A DNA stretch of 14,794 nt, from contig PEXK01000044.1 of NCBI GenBank assembly GCA_002779075.1, positions 1 to 14,794 on the forward strand. The letters are read 5' to 3'. This document shows positions 7,558 through 13,692 of this stretch, piece after piece (position 1 is the stretch's first letter; each line of letters starts with the position of its first letter). This stretch comes from Candidatus Diapherotrites archaeon CG08_land_8_20_14_0_20_30_16. Its GTDB lineage: Archaea; Iainarchaeota; Iainarchaeia; Iainarchaeales; 0-14-0-20-30-16. The notes under the pieces are model-generated. The model worked only from the letters and a program-made list of their open reading frames with translations. It did no database searches and was not told the origin of the DNA. The position numbers and the translations under genes are program-made.

Positions 7558-8211
7558 ATGGAATCCATTAGTAACTTGCAAGACTTAAAAAAAGAGTTTC
7601 AACAAATATCTGATAATAACCTAGCAATGGATAAAAATAGTCTGTCTAGTGTGGGGTATATGGATATTGAAACAACTGGCTTGAGTTCTGAGCACAATCA
7701 TATAACTCTAATTGGTTTGCATTCTAGTGATGCAACAAGTGTTTACATTGACACACAGAATCACAAAAAAGCTTGTCAAGACATTGATAAGTGTAGGTAT
7801 TTGGTTACTTTTAATGGCAATAGATTTGATTTGCCCTTTATTAATAAACATTATGGCCTTCAATGTAACTTCAAATCAATAGACTTGATGTATTTATTTT
7901 GGCAAATGGGTTATTATGGCGGATTAAAGAAGGTTGAACAGCAATTGGGATTAAGCAGAATGTCAGAAGTTGAAGGCATGAAAGGTTCAGAGGCAGTTAC
8001 ACTTTGGCATAAGTACAAGGCCGGAAATCAAGAGGCTCTTAACAAATTAGTTAATTATAATATAGAAGATATTGTTAATCTTGAGGTTCTTTTTAATTTT
8101 GCTTTGCAAAGAGCACAAAACAATACTATTTCAAGCGATGAGTTGAAGCAAAACAAGAAAAACATTATGAATAGAATTAAGAATAATGAAAGTCTTTATA
8201 TTTGGGATTAA
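7558..8211 (+). CDS. RNase-H-like (DEDD) 3'-5' exonuclease domain protein, YprB/COG3359-like
   Basis: MDIETTGL (Exo I), VTFNGNRFDLPFI (Exo II) and YNIEDIVNLEVLF (Exo III). A TTTAATAATA TATA-like box lies ~30 nt upstream and there is no SD, so the transcript may be leaderless. Confidence 0.7.
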   Translation: MESISNLQDLKKEFQQISDNNLAMDKNSLSSVGYMDIETTGLSSEHNHITLIGLHSSDATSVYIDTQNHKKACQDIDKCRYLVTFNGNRFDLPFINKHYGLQCNFKSIDLMYLFWQMGYYGGLKKVEQQLGLSRMSEVEGMKGSEAVTLWHKYKAGNQEALNKLVNYNIEDIVNLEVLFNFALQRAQNNTISSDELKQNKKNIMNRIKNNESLYIWD

Positions 8212-8222
8212 GAGGTGTATTT

Positions 8223-10241
8223 ATGAGTGGTTTATCTTTTAAAGAAGAAATTTTACAAGGTATTCCTGAGGTTTTACCAGAATTAAAACCTTATGATCTC
8301 AAAATAAATCACGCTCCAAAAAGAAAAGATATTTTAACACATAAAGAAAAGGAATTAGCTTTACACAATGCCTTAAGATATTTTAAAGAGAAACATCATG
8401 CAATTCTTGCTCCTGAGTTTGCAAAAGAATTGGAAACATATGGTAGAATTTATATGTATAGATTCAAACCAGAATATGAAATTTATGCTCGACCAATTAA
8501 TGATTATCCTCACAAATCAATACAAGCAGCAGCAATTATGCACATGTATTTTAATAATTTAGATCCAAAAGTTGCTCAACATCCAGATGAATTAATTATA
8601 TATGGTGGAAATGGTGCAGCATTTCAGAATTGGGCTCAATTTAGATTAACAATGCAGTATTTAGCAACAATGACTGATGAACAAACTTTAGTTATGAATT
8701 CAGGTTTGCCTTTAGGATTATTTCCATCACATAAAGATGCACCAAGAGTTGTTATATCAAATGGAATGGTTATTCCAAATCATTCAAGTTTAGATGATTA
8801 TGAGAGAATGAATGTACTAGGGGTTTCACAATATGGACAAATGACTGCTGGTTCTGCAATGTATATTGGCCCACAAGGAATTGTTCATGGAACAACAATA
8901 ACTTTATTGAATGCAAGTAGAAAAATTGATAAAGATGCAAATGATTTAAAAGGAAAAGTATTTGTAAGTTCTGGTTTAGGTGGTATGTCTGGTGCTCAAG
9001 CAAAAGCAAGTGTAATTGCAGGTGGCATTGGTGTTATTGCAGAAATAAACCCAAAAGCAATTGAAAAAAGACATGAACAGAAATGGTTGGATGAAATTCA
9101 TTCCGATTTAACTAAATTATTGGAAAGAATAAATTTAGCAAAAGAAAAAAAAGAATCTGTATCTTTAGGATATCTAGGAAATATTGTTGATCTGTGGGAA
9201 TTTTTAGCAAAAGAGAATATTAATATTGATATAGGTTCGGATCAAACATCATTGCATAATCCTTTTGCTGGTGGTTATTATCCTGTAGGATTATCTTTTG
9301 AAGATTCTAAAAAAATGATGACTGAAAACCCAGAAAAATTTAAAGAGCTAGTACAAAAATCTTTAATTAGACAAGTTATTGCAATTAATAAATTAACATC
9401 AAGAGGAATGTATTTCTTTGATTATGGTAATGCATTTTTATTGCAAACAAGTAAAGCTGGTGCAGATATAATGAATGATGATAAAACTAAATTTAGGTAT
9501 CCATCATATGTTGAAGATATTATGGGACCGATATGTTTTGATTATGGTTTTGGTCCATTTAGATGGGTTTGTACATCAGCAGACAAAAAGGATTTAGAAG
9601 TAACTGATAAATTAGCTGCTGATGTTTTAGAAGAGCAAGCAAAAAATGCATCAAAAGAAATTAAACAACAAATATTAGATAATTTAAAATGGATAATTGA
9701 AGCACAAAAAAATAATTTAGTTGTTGGTTCACAAGCAAGAATACTATATTCTAATTGTGAAGGTCGAACTAAAATTGCAAAAGCATTTAATGATGCAGTA
9801 AACTCGAGAAAGATTTCTGGTCCAGTTGTTATTGGAAGAGATCATCATGATGTTTCTGGAACTGATTCCCCATATAGAGAAACATCAAATATCTATGATG
9901 GTTCGAGTTTTACTGCAGATATGGCAATACAAAATGTAATTGGTGATTCTTTTAGAGGTGCAACTTGGGTCAGTATTCACAATGGTGGCGGAGTTGGCTG
10001 GGGTGAAGTTATAAATGGCGGATTTGGAATGGTTTTAGATGGTTCTCAAGATTCAGATAGGAGATTAAATAGTATGATTCACTTTGATGTTAATAATGGT
10101 TTGGCAAGAAGAAGTTGGGCCGGTAATTCAGGTGCTCAATATTCAATAAAGAATGCAATGCAAAATGAGCCAAAGTTAAAGATTACTGTTCCATATAATG
10201 CACATAAAGAGCTAATTAAAAAGGCTTTGACTAAAAACTAA
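8223..10241 (+). CDS. hutU: Urocanate hydratase (urocanase), long ~670-aa form
   Basis: Diagnostic urocanase blocks: IYGGNGAAFQNW, GQMTAGS.MYIGPQGIVHGT, GLGGMSGAQ (NAD site), DQTSLHNP, GRDHHDVSGTDSPYRETSN and HNGGGVGWG. GAGGTG (8211-8216) precedes the ATG at 8223, so I prefer that to the TTG at 8202. Confidence 0.9.
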   Translation: MSGLSFKEEILQGIPEVLPELKPYDLKINHAPKRKDILTHKEKELALHNALRYFKEKHHAILAPEFAKELETYGRIYMYRFKPEYEIYARPINDYPHKSIQAAAIMHMYFNNLDPKVAQHPDELIIYGGNGAAFQNWAQFRLTMQYLATMTDEQTLVMNSGLPLGLFPSHKDAPRVVISNGMVIPNHSSLDDYERMNVLGVSQYGQMTAGSAMYIGPQGIVHGTTITLLNASRKIDKDANDLKGKVFVSSGLGGMSGAQAKASVIAGGIGVIAEINPKAIEKRHEQKWLDEIHSDLTKLLERINLAKEKKESVSLGYLGNIVDLWEFLAKENINIDIGSDQTSLHNPFAGGYYPVGLSFEDSKKMMTENPEKFKELVQKSLIRQVIAINKLTSRGMYFFDYGNAFLLQTSKAGADIMNDDKTKFRYPSYVEDIMGPICFDYGFGPFRWVCTSADKKDLEVTDKLAADVLEEQAKNASKEIKQQILDNLKWIIEAQKNNLVVGSQARILYSNCEGRTKIAKAFNDAVNSRKISGPVVIGRDHHDVSGTDSPYRETSNIYDGSSFTADMAIQNVIGDSFRGATWVSIHNGGGVGWGEVINGGFGMVLDGSQDSDRRLNSMIHFDVNNGLARRSWAGNSGAQYSIKNAMQNEPKLKITVPYNAHKELIKKALTKN

Positions 10242-10254
10242 ATATATTAGAGAT

Positions 10255-10494
10255 TTAGAGTTCTTCTAATTCTTTTTTTATTGTTTGTTTGTCAATACCT
10301 GTTTGATCTAAAAGAATATTAATTATGTTATTTAGTGTTCCTTGTGCGATTGGGTTGTGATTAGGTACAATTATAGTTTTGTTAATAGTTTCATTTTTTA
10401 ATTTAATGTGACTTCCAATTTGACTAATGATAAAATAGTTCTTTGTTTTAAGGTATTTAATTATATCTTGTGCAGACAAAATTAATTTAGGCAT
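10255..10494 (-). CDS. hicA: HicA-family toxin (mRNA interferase)
   Basis: 79 aa. GSHIKLKN...IVPNHNPIAQGTLNNIIN..GI matches the HicA/YcfA pattern (GSH...P.H....GTL..I). It overlaps the hicB stop by 8 nt. Confidence 0.8.
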   Translation of the reverse strand: MPKLILSAQDIIKYLKTKNYFIISQIGSHIKLKNETINKTIIVPNHNPIAQGTLNNIINILLDQTGIDKQTIKKELEEL

Positions 10495-10693
10495 AAATAG
10501 TCTCTGTTGTAGGCATATCTAATAATAATTCTATTTTTGGATCATTGTTATCAAAATGGAGTCTTACTGCATCTAATATATTTTTGAATAGTTCGTCCAA
10601 TGTATTGCCCTGTGTTGTAATTCCGGCTTCTAATGCAACAGCAACCCAAACACCATCTTCATCTTTTTCTATTTTAAAAACTAAACGATCCAT
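10487..10693 (-). CDS. hicB: HicB-like antitoxin, short form (UPF0150 N-terminal domain only)
   Basis: MDRLVFKIEKDEDGVWVAVALEAGITTQGNTLDELFKNILDAVRLHF is a typical HicB N-domain. The track ORF 10487..10840 extends upstream into the tRNA-Lys flank and repeat, so I truncate it to the internal ATG at 10693. Confidence 0.75.
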   Translation of the reverse strand: MDRLVFKIEKDEDGVWVAVALEAGITTQGNTLDELFKNILDAVRLHFDNNDPKIELLLDMPTTETIYA

Positions 10694-10743
10694 AAAACCA
10701 CAATATATGTTATTGTAAGGAACTATAAAAATCTGTTGTTTGT

Positions 10744-10759
10744 ATGACCCGGACGGGAT
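10744..10759 (-). repeat. Orphan copy of the tRNA-Lys 3' end (direct repeat of 10841-10856)
   Basis: ATGACCCGGACGGGAT occurs exactly at 10744-10759 and 10841-10856. The proximal copy is the last 15 nt of tRNA-Lys plus 1 flanking nt. Confidence 0.9.
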
Positions 10760-10840
10760 CCTCAAAACCCTTTTTAGAAAAGCGTTTATGGAAAACCCCA
10801 ATCCACATTTGTGTATTGAGTGGAATTTGCAATTCCACAA
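10760..10840 (-). mobile_element. 81-bp non-coding segment bracketed by the tRNA-Lys 3'-end repeats; possible integrative-element scar or miniature element
   Basis: Flanked by perfect 16-nt direct repeats. It contains the hairpin GTGGAATT-TGC-AATTCCAC (10820-10838), which ends 3 nt from the tRNA discriminator. No credible ORF. Confidence 0.35.
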
Positions 10841-10841
10841 A

Positions 10842-10915
10842 TGACCCGGACGGGATTCGAACCCGCGACACTTGGATTAAGAGTCCAATGCTCTACCAGA
10901 CTGAGCTACCAGGCC
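10842..10915 (-). tRNA. tRNA-Lys (anticodon CUU)
   Basis: Hand-folded cloverleaf on the - strand: GGCCTGG TA GCTC AGTCTGGTA GAGC A TTGGA CTCTTAA TCCAA GTGTC GCGGG TTCGAAT CCCGT CCGGGTC A. 74 nt, no encoded CCA, two G-U pairs in the acceptor stem. Confidence 0.9.
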
Positions 10916-10917
10916 CT

Positions 10918-10949
10918 ACACCCCTTTTTCTTTGGAAAGAAAAAGGTGT
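10918..10949. other. Long A/T-tract palindrome directly 5' of tRNA-Lys
   Basis: ACACC(CC)TTTTTCTTT GG AAAGAAAAAGGTGT gives a 14-bp stem with a 2-nt bulge. It starts 3 nt upstream of the tRNA-Lys 5' end. Confidence 0.6.
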
Positions 10950-11018
10950 AAAGTTTATCCCAAAAAGAAACTGTGGCATAGCCACTATTTTTCTTTCTTT
11001 TAACATACCGTGTGTTTG

Positions 11019-11046
11019 CTTTCTTTTTCTAAAAGAAAGAAAAAAC
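11019..11046 (-). terminator. T-run plus hairpin immediately 3' of tRNA-Ser
   Basis: On the - strand the tRNA-Ser end is followed by TCCAG TTTTTT CTTTCTTT TAGAA AAAGAAAG. This is an oligo-T (archaeal-type termination signal) plus an 8-bp hairpin. Confidence 0.45.
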
Positions 11047-11050
11047 TGGA

Positions 11051-11133
11051 CGCAGGAAGAGGGATTCGAACCCTCGCCTCCTTTCGGAGTTTAGATTAGC
11101 AGTCTAACGCGTTAACCACTCCGCCATCCCTGC
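11051..11133 (-). tRNA. tRNA-Ser (anticodon GCU), class II with long variable arm
   Basis: GCAGGGA TG GCG GAGTGGTTAA CGC G TTAGA CTGCTAA TCTAA ACTCCGAAAGGAGGC GAGGG TTCGAAT CCCTC TTCCTGC G. 83 nt, no CCA. Confidence 0.9.
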
Positions 11134-11137
11134 TTAG

Positions 11138-11153
11138 CCTTTTTCTAAAAAGG
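11138..11153. other. Perfect palindrome CCTTTTT-CT-AAAAAGG in the 23-nt Val-Ser spacer
   Basis: Read directly. It lies 5 nt upstream of the tRNA-Ser 5' end. It resembles the palindromes at 10918-10949, 11019-11039 and 10768-10783. Confidence 0.6.
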
Positions 11154-11156
11154 ATA

Positions 11157-11287: not shown

Positions 11288-11304
11288 CGTCCCGTGCAGG
11301 ATTC
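11288..11304 (-). repeat. Orphan copy of the tRNA-Asn 3' end (direct repeat of 11394-11410)
   Basis: CGTCCCGTGCAGGATTC occurs exactly at 11288-11304 and 11394-11410. The proximal copy is the last 17 nt of tRNA-Asn, from the T-loop GAAT through the discriminator. Confidence 0.9.
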
Positions 11305-11393
11305 TAAGAACCTTTTGCATGATGTTTAAAAGCAAAATGTTCATGAAAAAACAAAGCCGTACACGGCTTTAGTGGAATGCAAGATTCCACAAG
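11305..11393 (-). mobile_element. 89-bp non-coding segment bracketed by the tRNA-Asn 3'-end repeats; possible integrative-element scar or miniature element
   Basis: Flanked by perfect 17-nt direct repeats. It contains the hairpin GTGGAAT-GCAAG-ATTCCAC (11372-11390), which ends 3 nt from the tRNA discriminator, plus a second hairpin with a T-run. Confidence 0.35.
11346..11370 (-). terminator. Stem-loop plus T6, terminator-like, downstream of tRNA-Asn
   Basis: The - strand reads AAAGCCGT GT ACGGCTTT G TTTTTT, an 8-bp GC-containing stem followed by an oligo-T. Confidence 0.5.
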
Positions 11394-11465
11394 CGTCCCG
11401 TGCAGGATTCGAACCTGCGACCTCTCGATTAACAGTCGAACGCACCACCGCTGTGCTAACGGGAC
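11394..11465 (-). tRNA. tRNA-Asn (anticodon GUU)
   Basis: GTCCCGT TA GCAC AGCGGTG GTGC G TTCGA CTGTTAA TCGAG AGGTC GCAGG TTCGAAT CCTGC ACGGGAC G. 72 nt, no CCA. Confidence 0.9.
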
Positions 11466-11600: not shown

Positions 11601-11869
11601 GCAAGGAACTAGATCGGGGGGTTAGTGGTCCCCTACCCAGAGAATCCACTTTACTCTGGATCGAAAAGCATTGAGGCGGCCCAAAGGTAATTATTGCATC
11701 AAAAATTTTGCCTTGAGGATCAGACTGCAAATGCTTTCTATTTAGAAACCCGCTAGGACAGGAATGGAGCAACGGTAACTATTTAGAAGGTAGTTTGTGG
11801 CCACCTGGTCTGAGTAAAATTTTGATTAACAATAGTTGTCCTGTAAGTCCACTCAATGAAGTTCCTTGC
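11601..11869 (+). ncRNA. Signal recognition particle RNA (archaeal 7S/SRP RNA) candidate
   Basis: A terminal helix forms between GCAAGGAAC (11601-11609) and GTTCCTTGC (11861-11869). Two 5' hairpins have complementary loops (GTGG 11625-11628, CCAC 11646-11649), as in the Alu-domain loop-loop contact. A long imperfect helix 5 includes CATTGAG 11669-11675 paired with CTCAATG 11852-11858 and AUCAGAC paired with GUCUGA. AGGACA-GGAA-TGGAGCAAC (11755-11773) closely resembles the conserved helix-8 motif (E. coli 4.5S AGGUCC-GGAA-GGAAGCAGC). A T5 run follows at 11874-11878. Hand fold only. Confidence 0.7.
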
Positions 11870-13252: not shown

Positions 13253-13480
13253 TTATATTTTTTCTAAAAACTCATCTCTTGTAATTCCCAAGTCTTTTTT
13301 AATTATTTTGTTAAGTAGTCCAGAACCTATTTCTTCTCCAGAATGGCAAGGAATAGTGGTTATTCTTCCATTTGGGTGTTTGTATACAATGTGACTTCCA
13401 GTAGTATGACTATAAAAAAATCCGAATTTCTCAACTATCTTTGCAACTTCTTTTCCAGTTAGTCTTGGAAGGTGTGACAA
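13253..13480 (-). CDS. hicA: HicA-family toxin (second copy)
   Basis: 75 aa. LTGKEVAKIVEKFGF...TGSHIVYKHPNGRITTIPCHSGEEIGSGLLNKIIKKDLGI is the HicA pattern. Confidence 0.85.
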   Translation of the reverse strand: MSHLPRLTGKEVAKIVEKFGFFYSHTTGSHIVYKHPNGRITTIPCHSGEEIGSGLLNKIIKKDLGITRDEFLEKI

Positions 13481-13482
13481 AA

Positions 13483-13692
13483 TTACACCTCTATTTGTTG
13501 TACTCCCACAAATTGTTGAAAAACATCTATTTTGCTACTGTTTGTTTCAAGGTACGCTTGAATTGCCTCTTTTGTTCTTTCTATTAATTCATTCATAGTT
13601 TTTGCCTGTGTATGACAACCAGGTAATCCTAAGACTTCAGAAACTAACCAGCCATCTTCATCTTTTTCTATAATTAGAGTATATTTTGCCAT
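13483..13692 (-). CDS. hicB: HicB-like antitoxin, short form (second copy)
   Basis: MAKYTLIIEKDEDGWLVSEVLGLPGCHTQAKTMNELIERTKEAIQAYLE is a HicB/UPF0150 N-domain. It ends 2 nt upstream of hicA-2. Confidence 0.8.
   Translation of the reverse strand: MAKYTLIIEKDEDGWLVSEVLGLPGCHTQAKTMNELIERTKEAIQAYLETNSSKIDVFQQFVGVQQIEV

Follow-up and report, generated by a model that had tools for sequence, protein, structure and literature searches.

Duplicated tRNA 3′ ends beside ftsZ

The DNA analysed here (the window) comprises 14,794 nt, positions 1 to 14,794 of contig PEXK01000044.1 of Candidatus Diapherotrites archaeon CG08_land_8_20_14_0_20_30_16 (GCA_002779075.1), and its subject is a pair of short, gene-less modules lying directly behind two of its tRNA genes. 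The host is an AT-rich archaeon whose tRNAs lack an encoded CCA, and the window contains genes for an archaeal-type FtsZ, MetRS, urocanase and two HicAB pairs, together with the signal recognition particle (SRP) RNA. The nearest relatives by FtsZ are archaeal metagenome-assembled genomes (MAGs); those further away carry the labels Diapherotrites, Micrarchaeota or 'archaeon'. A minus-strand tRNA cluster (Asn-Val-Ser-Lys) is located between the SRP RNA and ftsZ on one side and a HicBA pair on the other, the pair consisting of a 68-aa HicB-like gene, with its start at 10693, followed by HicA.

In the 14.8-kb window, the 16-mer ATGACCCGGACGGGAT has exactly two occurrences, and still only two when two mismatches are allowed. 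No match of any kind was obtained in 200 dinucleotide-preserving shuffles (0 expected), ruling out a chance repeat. The proximal copy consists of the last 15 nt of tRNA-Lys(CUU) plus one nucleotide of the trailer, and the distal copy lies downstream in the direction of the tRNA, at a distance of 97 nt from start to start, with 81 nt between the copies. A second exact repeat, CGTCCCGTGCAGGATTC (17 nt), is formed by the 3′ end of tRNA-Asn and a copy 106 nt away. Counted as the body plus one repeat, the Lys unit measures 97 nt, of which 81 nt are body, and the Asn unit 106 nt. An earlier reading of the window, referred to here as the original prediction, had described the 16-nt repeat, taken the 81 bp between its copies as non-coding and claimed the same architecture for tRNA-Asn, and all three claims held. 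The open reading frames (ORFs) overlapping the 81 nt were rejected as genes: that on the minus strand (10487–10840) is an artefactual TTG extension of the HicB-like gene, for which the start at 10693 is called in 10/10 matching contigs, and that on the plus strand (10744–11094) runs antisense across two tRNAs.

Aligned in the tRNA sense, the Lys and Asn trailers are homologous (Table 1). They share the order tRNA end with one further nucleotide, hairpin h1 (TTGTGGAAT-N5-ATTCCAC), hairpin h2, a T-run, a third hairpin (h3) that is AT-rich and ends in AAAGG, a degenerate T-loop, and an exact copy of the tRNA's own 3′ end. In both trailers, h1 follows right behind the tRNA and has the form GTGGAAT-N5-ATTCCAC. 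The Asn module (11288–11392) occupies most of the 163-nt Asn-Val spacer; spacers in module-free relatives are 66–74 nt long.

Table 1. Positions of the tRNA genes, repeats and hairpins of the Lys and Asn modules in the window
Feature	Position	Strand	Description	Evidence
tRNA-Lys(CUU)	10842–10915	−	Intact, no encoded CCA	ARAGORN; Rfam RF00005, 69.5 bits
Lys proximal repeat	10841–10856	−	attL-like; last 2 nt of T-loop, T-stem 3′ strand, acceptor 3′ strand, discriminator, 1 trailer nt	
Lys h1	10820–10838	−	GTGGAATT-GCA-AATTCCAC; begins 3 nt past tRNA end; sequence conserved across genomes, pairs covary	
Lys h2	10799–10818	−	CAATACAC..GTGGATTG, one mismatch; stem sequence varies among modules, pairing kept	
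Lys T-run	10792–10795	−	T4 after h2	
Lys h3	10767–10783	−	GCTTTT-CTAAA-AAGGGT, AT-rich; found in all long modules	
Lys degenerate T-loop	10760–10768	−	Distal GGGTTTTGAGG+ATCCC, compared with GGGTTCGA+ATCCC in the tRNA	
Lys distal repeat	10744–10759	−	attR-like; exact 16-nt copy of tRNA-Lys 3′ end, followed by flank and HicB-like gene	
tRNA-Asn(GUU)	11394–11465	−		ARAGORN; Rfam
Asn proximal repeat	11394–11410	−	17 nt; last 4 nt of T-loop through discriminator	
Asn h1	11372–11390	−	GTGGAAT-CTTGC-ATTCCAC	
Asn h2	11352–11371	−	TAAAGCCG-TGTA-CGGCTTTG; then T6 at 11346–11351	
Asn h3	11313–11337	−	TTTTGC-(13 nt)-GCAAAA	
Asn distal repeat	11288–11304	−	Exact 17 nt; degenerate T-loop GGTTCTTA before, T5 run after	

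Filled and empty sites in close relatives

Locus L050, which has the same gene order as the window and a 91% identical FtsZ, and which lies on the same contig as L049, carries no module at tRNA-Lys or tRNA-Asn; both tRNAs run directly into their flanks. The flank behind tRNA-Lys in L050 is identical to the flank behind the distal copy in L054 at 120/153 positions, compared with 78/164 in a control alignment with the L054 sequence behind the proximal copy. L050 and L054 are a clean empty/filled pair, differing by one body together with one repeat as the unit of gain or loss (106 nt in L054). Contigs of the closest FtsZ relatives (94–95% identical) stop short of the tRNA-Lys site. Within the window's own population, nine contigs cover the module, and 9/9 carry it with 100% identity to the window there.

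A family of modules behind archaeal tRNA genes

Genomes were searched with a pattern composed of a T-loop, a tRNA-length spacer and h1, and further loci were collected through FtsZ homologues and synteny. The pattern matched behind tRNA-Glu in a Ca. Woesearchaeota MAG (L044 and L048, which are one sequence), behind a tRNA with the anticodon UAU (L043/L045) and behind tRNA-His in an uncultured archaeon (L049), and at each genuine match the tRNA's own 3′ end is copied within 62–133 nt downstream. Two of the four matches from the genome scan (Mariniphaga and Pelagibius) are bacterial, have no tRNA ending at the match site, and were discarded as chance. At L043/L045 (positions 1–180), the module-bearing tRNA(UAU) is 5′-incomplete and joined to a purA-like ORF over the latter's initial ~35 codons, with both contigs starting at the same base, which could be an assembly artefact or a real rearrangement.

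Altogether, five further archaeal assemblies contain a module, located behind tRNA-His, tRNA-Glu, tRNA(UAU) or other tRNA-Lys genes (L054/L057, L051 and L064/L065). The family comprises eight sites, five tRNA types and six genomes, with no gene fragment in any of them. The exact copy measures 11–25 nt (10 modules), the period 62–133 nt, and the bodies, which contain no ORF, 50–115 nt; the tRNAs at module sites score 60–70 bits with Rfam. Syntenic loci share the order MetRS – dUTPase – RNase H-like … tRNA cluster – SRP RNA – ftsZ, in which the SRP RNA was identified in the window. The tRNA-Lys module of L054 and L057 has a compensated h1 variant (GTGGATTT-GTA-AAATCCAC), and that of L064 and L065 (FtsZ 77%) has the same architecture with different hairpin sequences.

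Module bodies are alike across different tRNAs: the Lys and Asn modules of the window (K_win and N_win) resemble each other, and over their right halves K_L054 and the tRNA-His module H_L049 are almost identical. This similarity behind different tRNAs points to one element family rather than to decayed tRNA copies. All type-1 modules keep h1, while h2, h3 and the order of the parts are kept in all but the short tRNA-Glu module. Across the archaeal loci examined, h1-like hairpins occur only at tRNA ends. A third, far-off copy of the tRNA end, such as would bound a larger island, was absent from every one of these loci, and such an island was rejected on this basis. The modules are a family of gene-less insertion units at tRNA 3′ ends of DPANN-type (Woesearchaeota-like) archaea.

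Conserved hairpins in the module bodies

Covariation of h1 was tested on seven sequences, among which the homology of K_L064 was only assumed. Of the alignment cells, 92.9% were paired, 8/8 pairs had changed on both sides, and 0/500 shuffles were as good. The sequences of h2 and h3 differ between modules, and the stem is kept. Except in the short tRNA-Glu module, h2 is followed by a run of T4 to T6 in every type-1 module; as far as its sequence indicates, this run is a possible archaeal terminator for the transcript of a rebuilt tRNA gene. Folding z-scores of nine module sequences ranged from −1.1 to −4.1. The summed minimum free energy was −221 kcal/mol for the sense strand vs −205 kcal/mol for the antisense strand, with more G-U pairs in the sense strand, which is a weak hint of a role as RNA or as a single strand.

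From the short Glu module came the idea that the body might form a 'minihelix' by complementing its own distal copy; this was rejected as a general feature, pairing energies being −11.3 kcal/mol for cognate and −10.8 kcal/mol for non-cognate combinations, within the shuffle ranges. Comparison of the left 30 nt with the reverse complement of the right 30 nt gave no terminal inverted repeats, the local scores of 4–6 being equal to the shuffle mean in 6/6 modules. A search of Rfam 15 at a permissive threshold matched no trailer family: the gathering score was reached only by tRNA and SRP RNA, and matches in the trailers had E-values of at least 0.5.

Repeat boundaries and stacked units

The exact repeat begins at or next to G53 of the T-loop in H_L049, K_L051_M1 and K_L064 (25, 22 and 20 nt, respectively). 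In L049 a second, truncated h1 is present behind the distal His copy, and the identity in H_L049 continues into it (44 nt counting this second h1). In the remaining modules the last 11–17 nt are exact and the T-loop portion is degenerate. Altered distal T-loops recurrently read GGAT where the tRNA has GAAT (K_win, I_L043, K_L054, K_L065 and E_L048), and GGAG in K_L051_M2; L064 and L065 carry the same module, and the only difference in their distal T-loops is TTCGAAT vs TTCGGAT. Repeats starting near G53, together with degenerate T-loops elsewhere, suggest that element and target join at the T-loop, and that the distal T-loop is the decaying or altered part.

In L051, two units are stacked behind tRNA-Lys. 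The first part of the trailer contains body 1 (h1, h2, T-run and h3), followed by GTTCGAATCC + TGCACGGGACG, which are the T-loop and 3′ end of tRNA-Asn. The second part contains body 2, with a covarying h1-type hairpin (GTATCATT-GCA-AATGATAC), followed by GTTCGGAGCC + CGTCCGGGTCAT, the Lys end; this second stacked unit measures ~97 nt. The order would be explained by integration of an Asn-type unit into the T-loop of the resident distal copy; a target-site duplication would have placed a Lys end in the middle of the trailer. Body 2 is homologous to a short insert behind the real tRNA-Asn of L051 (9190–9254, minus strand), where 38 nt are followed by a 9-nt copy, CACGGGACG. This insert looks like a degraded type-2 module or the scar of an imprecise excision.

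Proposed mechanism

The comparisons show a gene-less unit that has been inserted, that varies in presence among relatives, and whose ends are set by the T-loop and 3′ end of the tRNA. With moderate confidence, we hypothesize that the modules are non-autonomous, att-flanked mini-elements on which a recombinase supplied in trans acts at the tRNA T-loop. Each module would be a circularly permuted minimal attP unit (tRNA 3′ end - h1 - h2 - T-run - h3 - T-loop), possibly mobile as a minicircle, that integrates and excises by site-specific recombination in or next to the near-universal T-loop sequence GTTCGAAT. The recombinase would be encoded elsewhere and would most likely be a tyrosine integrase. 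In a filled site, the proximal copy completes the working tRNA and the distal copy is the displaced 3′ end, and the left part of the body (h1, h2 and T-run) would supply the rebuilt tRNA gene with a new trailer and terminator. Distal copies with a mutated T-loop would no longer recombine, so that the module becomes locked in place, and in L051 an Asn-type unit would have entered the resident distal T-loop, where a mismatched 3′ end is harmless. We favour site-specific recombination because it explains the T-loop-like sequence upstream of the perfect copy, the variable length of the repeat and the Asn end in a Lys site, and it would also account for tandem accretion and for mutated distal T-loops as locks.

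The original prediction had proposed integration at a tRNA att-type site, with the short insert being either the deletion scar of a larger element or a miniature non-autonomous element. Integration is supported by the empty sites of L050, by the L050/L054 flanks and by the homologous family behind at least five tRNAs. With every copy short and belonging to that family, the interpretation is sharpened towards the miniature element, and the deletion scar is disfavoured. Of the searches proposed along with it, those for empty sites and for the segment in related genomes succeeded, the latter yielding the modules of the five further assemblies, and no integrase was seen in the loci examined.

Several observations weigh against our proposal. 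No integrase or recombinase gene was present in the ~20 archaeal loci examined (Pfam gene lists, with no PF00589-type match), and IMG/VR, the INPHARED phages and the PLSDB plasmids yielded neither an autonomous parent nor a free attP junction. A search of viral contigs with the h1 hairpin alone gave 32 matches, none of them beside tRNA-like sequence, and these were set aside as chance. Viral scans with the right-arm motifs TTTTGGTAGGRCGGCAAC and AAAGGNYTYGTTCGAATCC and the type-2 body motif TTTCGTAAACATTTTTGT returned nothing, or unrelated AT-rich sequence lacking module features, and blastn of the 81-nt body against plasmids and phages gave nothing meaningful. A double-stranded circle of 62–133 bp would be as small as, or smaller than, those that simple tyrosine recombinases are known to handle. 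The presence of the module in every population contig that covers it gives no sign of ongoing excision there, and the composite of L051 could have arisen through unequal crossing-over between neighbouring modules. A further weak point of the scheme is that a cognate 3′ end carried by the element hampers switching between tRNAs, yet one body family occurs at five tRNA types. Body swapping by homologous recombination would be needed for a change of tRNA specificity, and the mosaic similarity among bodies is compatible with recombination between them.

Alternative explanations

An origin by target-duplicating transposition, through a casposase (Cas1-type) or target-primed reverse transcription of a read-through trailer RNA, is unlikely but retains some chance. 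The T-loop and the tRNA 3′ end would be cut in a staggered manner, the body inserted, and the 13–22 nt between the cuts duplicated by gap repair, a route that automatically yields one body family with the appropriate 3′ end at five tRNAs. Casposons are known to target tRNA 3′ ends, where the T-loop region serves in recognition, and the perfect repeat of most modules (11–17 nt) is within the casposon duplication range; the slightly better folding of the sense strand and its additional G-U pairs are compatible with an RNA intermediate. However, the modules lack terminal inverted repeats, and none of the loci examined showed a Cas1, transposase or reverse transcriptase. The repeat also varies from 11 to 25 nt (44 nt in L049 with the second h1), and the tRNA-Asn end within the Lys site of L051 is not producible from a Lys target. 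The T-loop-like sequence upstream of the perfect copy further suggests that the element itself carries tRNA-like sequence.

It is similarly unlikely, though conceivable, that the modules are fixed scars, left when an integrated virus or plasmid lost its cargo and its two att arms were joined, and no longer mobile. The B-O-P′-P-O-B′ layout is that expected from an internal deletion, and the unchanged module in 9/9 population contigs and the mutation of most distal T-loops fit immobility. A conjugation-like gene cluster downstream of the syntenic tRNA-Asn in L067 (see below) suggests that large elements use the tRNA cluster too. Independent deletions would nevertheless not converge on modules so uniformly short and ordered: at all eight sites, in six genomes and behind five tRNA types, the copies span 62–133 nt without gene fragments, the parts recur as described above, and the second stacked unit of L051 has a similar length (~97 nt). 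In addition, the tRNA + h1 pattern was capable of catching full-length integrated elements, and caught none.

A bolder possibility, which we consider improbable, is that the modules are the smallest integrative mobile elements known, i.e., gene-less parasites of tRNA genes, ~60–130 nt long, with the T-loop as their common site, moved by a housekeeping recombinase of the host or through a tRNA read-through transcript. In the read-through version, RNase Z would free the 5′ end of the RNA and its T-loop-like 3′ end would anneal to a nicked T-loop, making the module an archaeal retro-element resembling short interspersed nuclear elements (SINEs). Mutated distal T-loops might then act as locks, or as decoys that shield the tRNA site from incoming viruses and plasmids.

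We are more doubtful that the module is a structured 3′ trailer useful to the host, whether a terminator or processing cassette or a small RNA from the tRNA precursor, that spread between tRNA genes by recombination. The compensatory changes that keep three hairpins, the T-run after h2 in long type-1 modules, the folding z-scores and the slightly better folding of the sense strand are all consistent with such a role, and tRNA genes without an encoded CCA need 3′ processing. However, L050 does without the module at the same tRNAs, as do tRNA-Val and tRNA-Ser of the same operon, and no Rfam family was matched. A trailer function also leaves the copy of the tRNA 3′ end unexplained, with no specific complementarity between body and copy.

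Archaeal tRNAs can have introns at non-canonical positions including the T-loop (compare PMC3293823), and when the Asn precursor is folded to minimum energy, the 5′ end of the tRNA is paired to the distal copy, but it is highly improbable that these are unusual tRNA genes (with a T-loop intron and bulge-helix-bulge, or split or permuted) whose true 3′ exon is the distal copy, since the proximal copy already makes a complete, high-scoring tRNA (69.5 and 68.9 bits), the same tRNAs of relatives lack the insert, and in the obvious T-arm register, the one examined, the 4-nt central helix would require the impossible pairing of GAAT with GAAT or GGAT.

Comparison with known elements

Williams's classification of 2002 is said to include a class of tRNA-integrating elements with crossover in the T-loop. 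Among known systems, islands of this class and their att-flanked, non-autonomous derivatives come nearest to the modules. The modules resemble tRNA-integrating islands, proviruses and plasmids with tyrosine integrases (Islander, PMC4383910) in the direct repeat from T-loop to tRNA end that brackets the insert and leaves the tRNA intact, in the empty and filled alleles of relatives, and in the stacking of units at one tRNA. They are unlike these elements in having inserts of 50–115 nt, no integrase or any other gene, and one body family at no fewer than five tRNA species; with no integrase gene inside the element, they would belong among tRNA-att integrative elements only as a non-autonomous derivative.

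The cis-mobilizable elements (CIMEs) of Streptococcus thermophilus and the integrative mobile elements exploiting Xer (IMEX), which borrow XerCD, are flanked by attL and attR, have no recombination module of their own, rely on a recombinase from another element or the host, and can accrete in tandem. Att-type flanks, stacking and, probably, dependence on a recombinase from elsewhere are features that the modules share with CIMEs and att-flanked satellites. However, CIMEs are kilobases long, bacterial and derived from integrative and conjugative elements, whereas the modules are ~100 nt long, archaeal and linked to tRNAs, and contain hairpins only.

In Thermococcaceae, integrated elements leave partial tRNA genes (PMC9897764), and a displaced tRNA fragment or att remnant is present at the tRNA-Thr locus of Caldiarchaeum (PMC3293823). 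As with the modules, a partial 3′ copy downstream of an intact tRNA is the footprint of integration. Those remnants stem from large elements, or from single events in which a recombinase gene lies in between, whereas the modules are a recurrent, conserved and gene-less unit.

Casposons are archaeal elements that insert at tRNA 3′ ends with the T-loop region adjoining, produce a target duplication of ~14–15 bp, have terminal inverted repeats, and encode Cas1 and PolB. In contrast, the modules have neither inverted termini nor genes, their repeat length is variable, and one copy carries a non-cognate tRNA end (Asn in the Lys site of L051). Miniature transposable elements with inverted repeats (MITEs) and the palindrome-associated transposable elements (PATEs) derived from IS200/IS605 are, like the modules, short, non-coding, non-autonomous, hairpin-rich and present in several copies per genome, but neither is tied to the segment from the T-loop to the 3′ end of a tRNA. 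MITEs have terminal inverted repeats and short duplications of fixed length, whereas the modules have a repeat of 11–25 nt anchored to the tRNA structure; a MITE or other derivative of a DDE transposon was rejected on the absence of inverted repeats (6 modules) and of a short fixed-length duplication. Palindrome-associated elements of the IS200/IS605 type have subterminal hairpins, insert 3′ of a 4–5-nt target, make no long direct repeat and go with a TnpA gene in the genome. The modules have hairpins, but their long direct repeat argues against membership. The module family differs from all of the systems compared in the combination of ~100 nt, no genes, three hairpins, many tRNA species and DPANN hosts, and literature searches found no description of it.

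The mobile DNA of DPANN archaea, which have tiny, streamlined genomes, is little known. If the modules do enter and leave tRNA 3′ ends, they would indicate a lower size limit for att-type integrative elements. The conserved hairpin and T-loop junction would then provide a sequence handle for the recombinase and for autonomous partners, and the modules would account for partial tRNA copies that can mislead tRNA annotation and the calling of genomic islands in DPANN genomes.

Gene neighbourhood of the tRNA cluster

The arrangement of tRNA cluster and ftsZ is kept in relatives. In the window, the SRP RNA lies between them at 11604–11866 on the plus strand (Rfam RF01854, 79 bits). The Asn-(Val)-Ser-Lys cluster beside ftsZ would be a recombination hotspot, downstream of which the gene content differs between close relatives. 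Between the RNase H-like gene and tRNA-Lys, the window (7558–10693) contains urocanase and HicAB, whereas L050 (6465–8851) and L054 (5492–8878), both with ~91% identical FtsZ, contain a sulfatase, in L054 together with a nucleotidyltransferase. The window also has four additional genes between dUTPase and the RNase H-like gene.

Of the two HicB-like/HicA toxin-antitoxin pairs in the window (10255–10693 and 13253–13692), one lies directly past the distal Lys repeat, and in L049 a MazEF-like pair, assigned by reading the sequence, lies directly past the tRNA-His module. The association of toxin-antitoxin pairs with modules may be coincidental.

In L067 (1–9133; FtsZ 74% identical), the tRNA-Asn upstream of ftsZ is found inside a cluster that includes PrgI/TraC-like and TraG/DUF87-like ATPase genes as well as numerous small ORFs. 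Its conjugation-like genes are downstream of the tRNA-Asn 3′ end, and the cluster is possibly a large conjugative element that has integrated; within the stretch examined, the tRNA-Asn end was not repeated.

Contig L010 (1–210), which belongs to the same series of samples, agrees with the window at 99.8% from tRNA-Ser on (1 mismatch in 534 nt), and upstream of tRNA-Ser has a different tRNA-Val and a spacer of 85 nt vs 23 nt in the window. The difference reflects either variation between strains or a chimeric assembly at the tRNA cluster. Several other contigs break within the tRNA cluster.

AT-rich palindromes of the form CCTTTTT..AAAAAGG are present in the tRNA spacers of the window, upstream of tRNA-Lys (10920–10949), after tRNA-Ser (10988–11046) and between tRNA-Val and tRNA-Ser (11139–11155). 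They look like hairpin h3 of the modules and may act more generally as signals for processing or termination. On the minus strand of L050, a spacer element of ~50 nt beginning TTTTTGTGTTGGTACACAAACACAATATAAGTTTTGGGG occurs both after tRNA-Asn and after tRNA-Ser (~9222–9295 and ~9040–9136), and is also found in L054. It includes a TATA-like ATATAAG and may serve the tRNA that follows as a promoter cassette.

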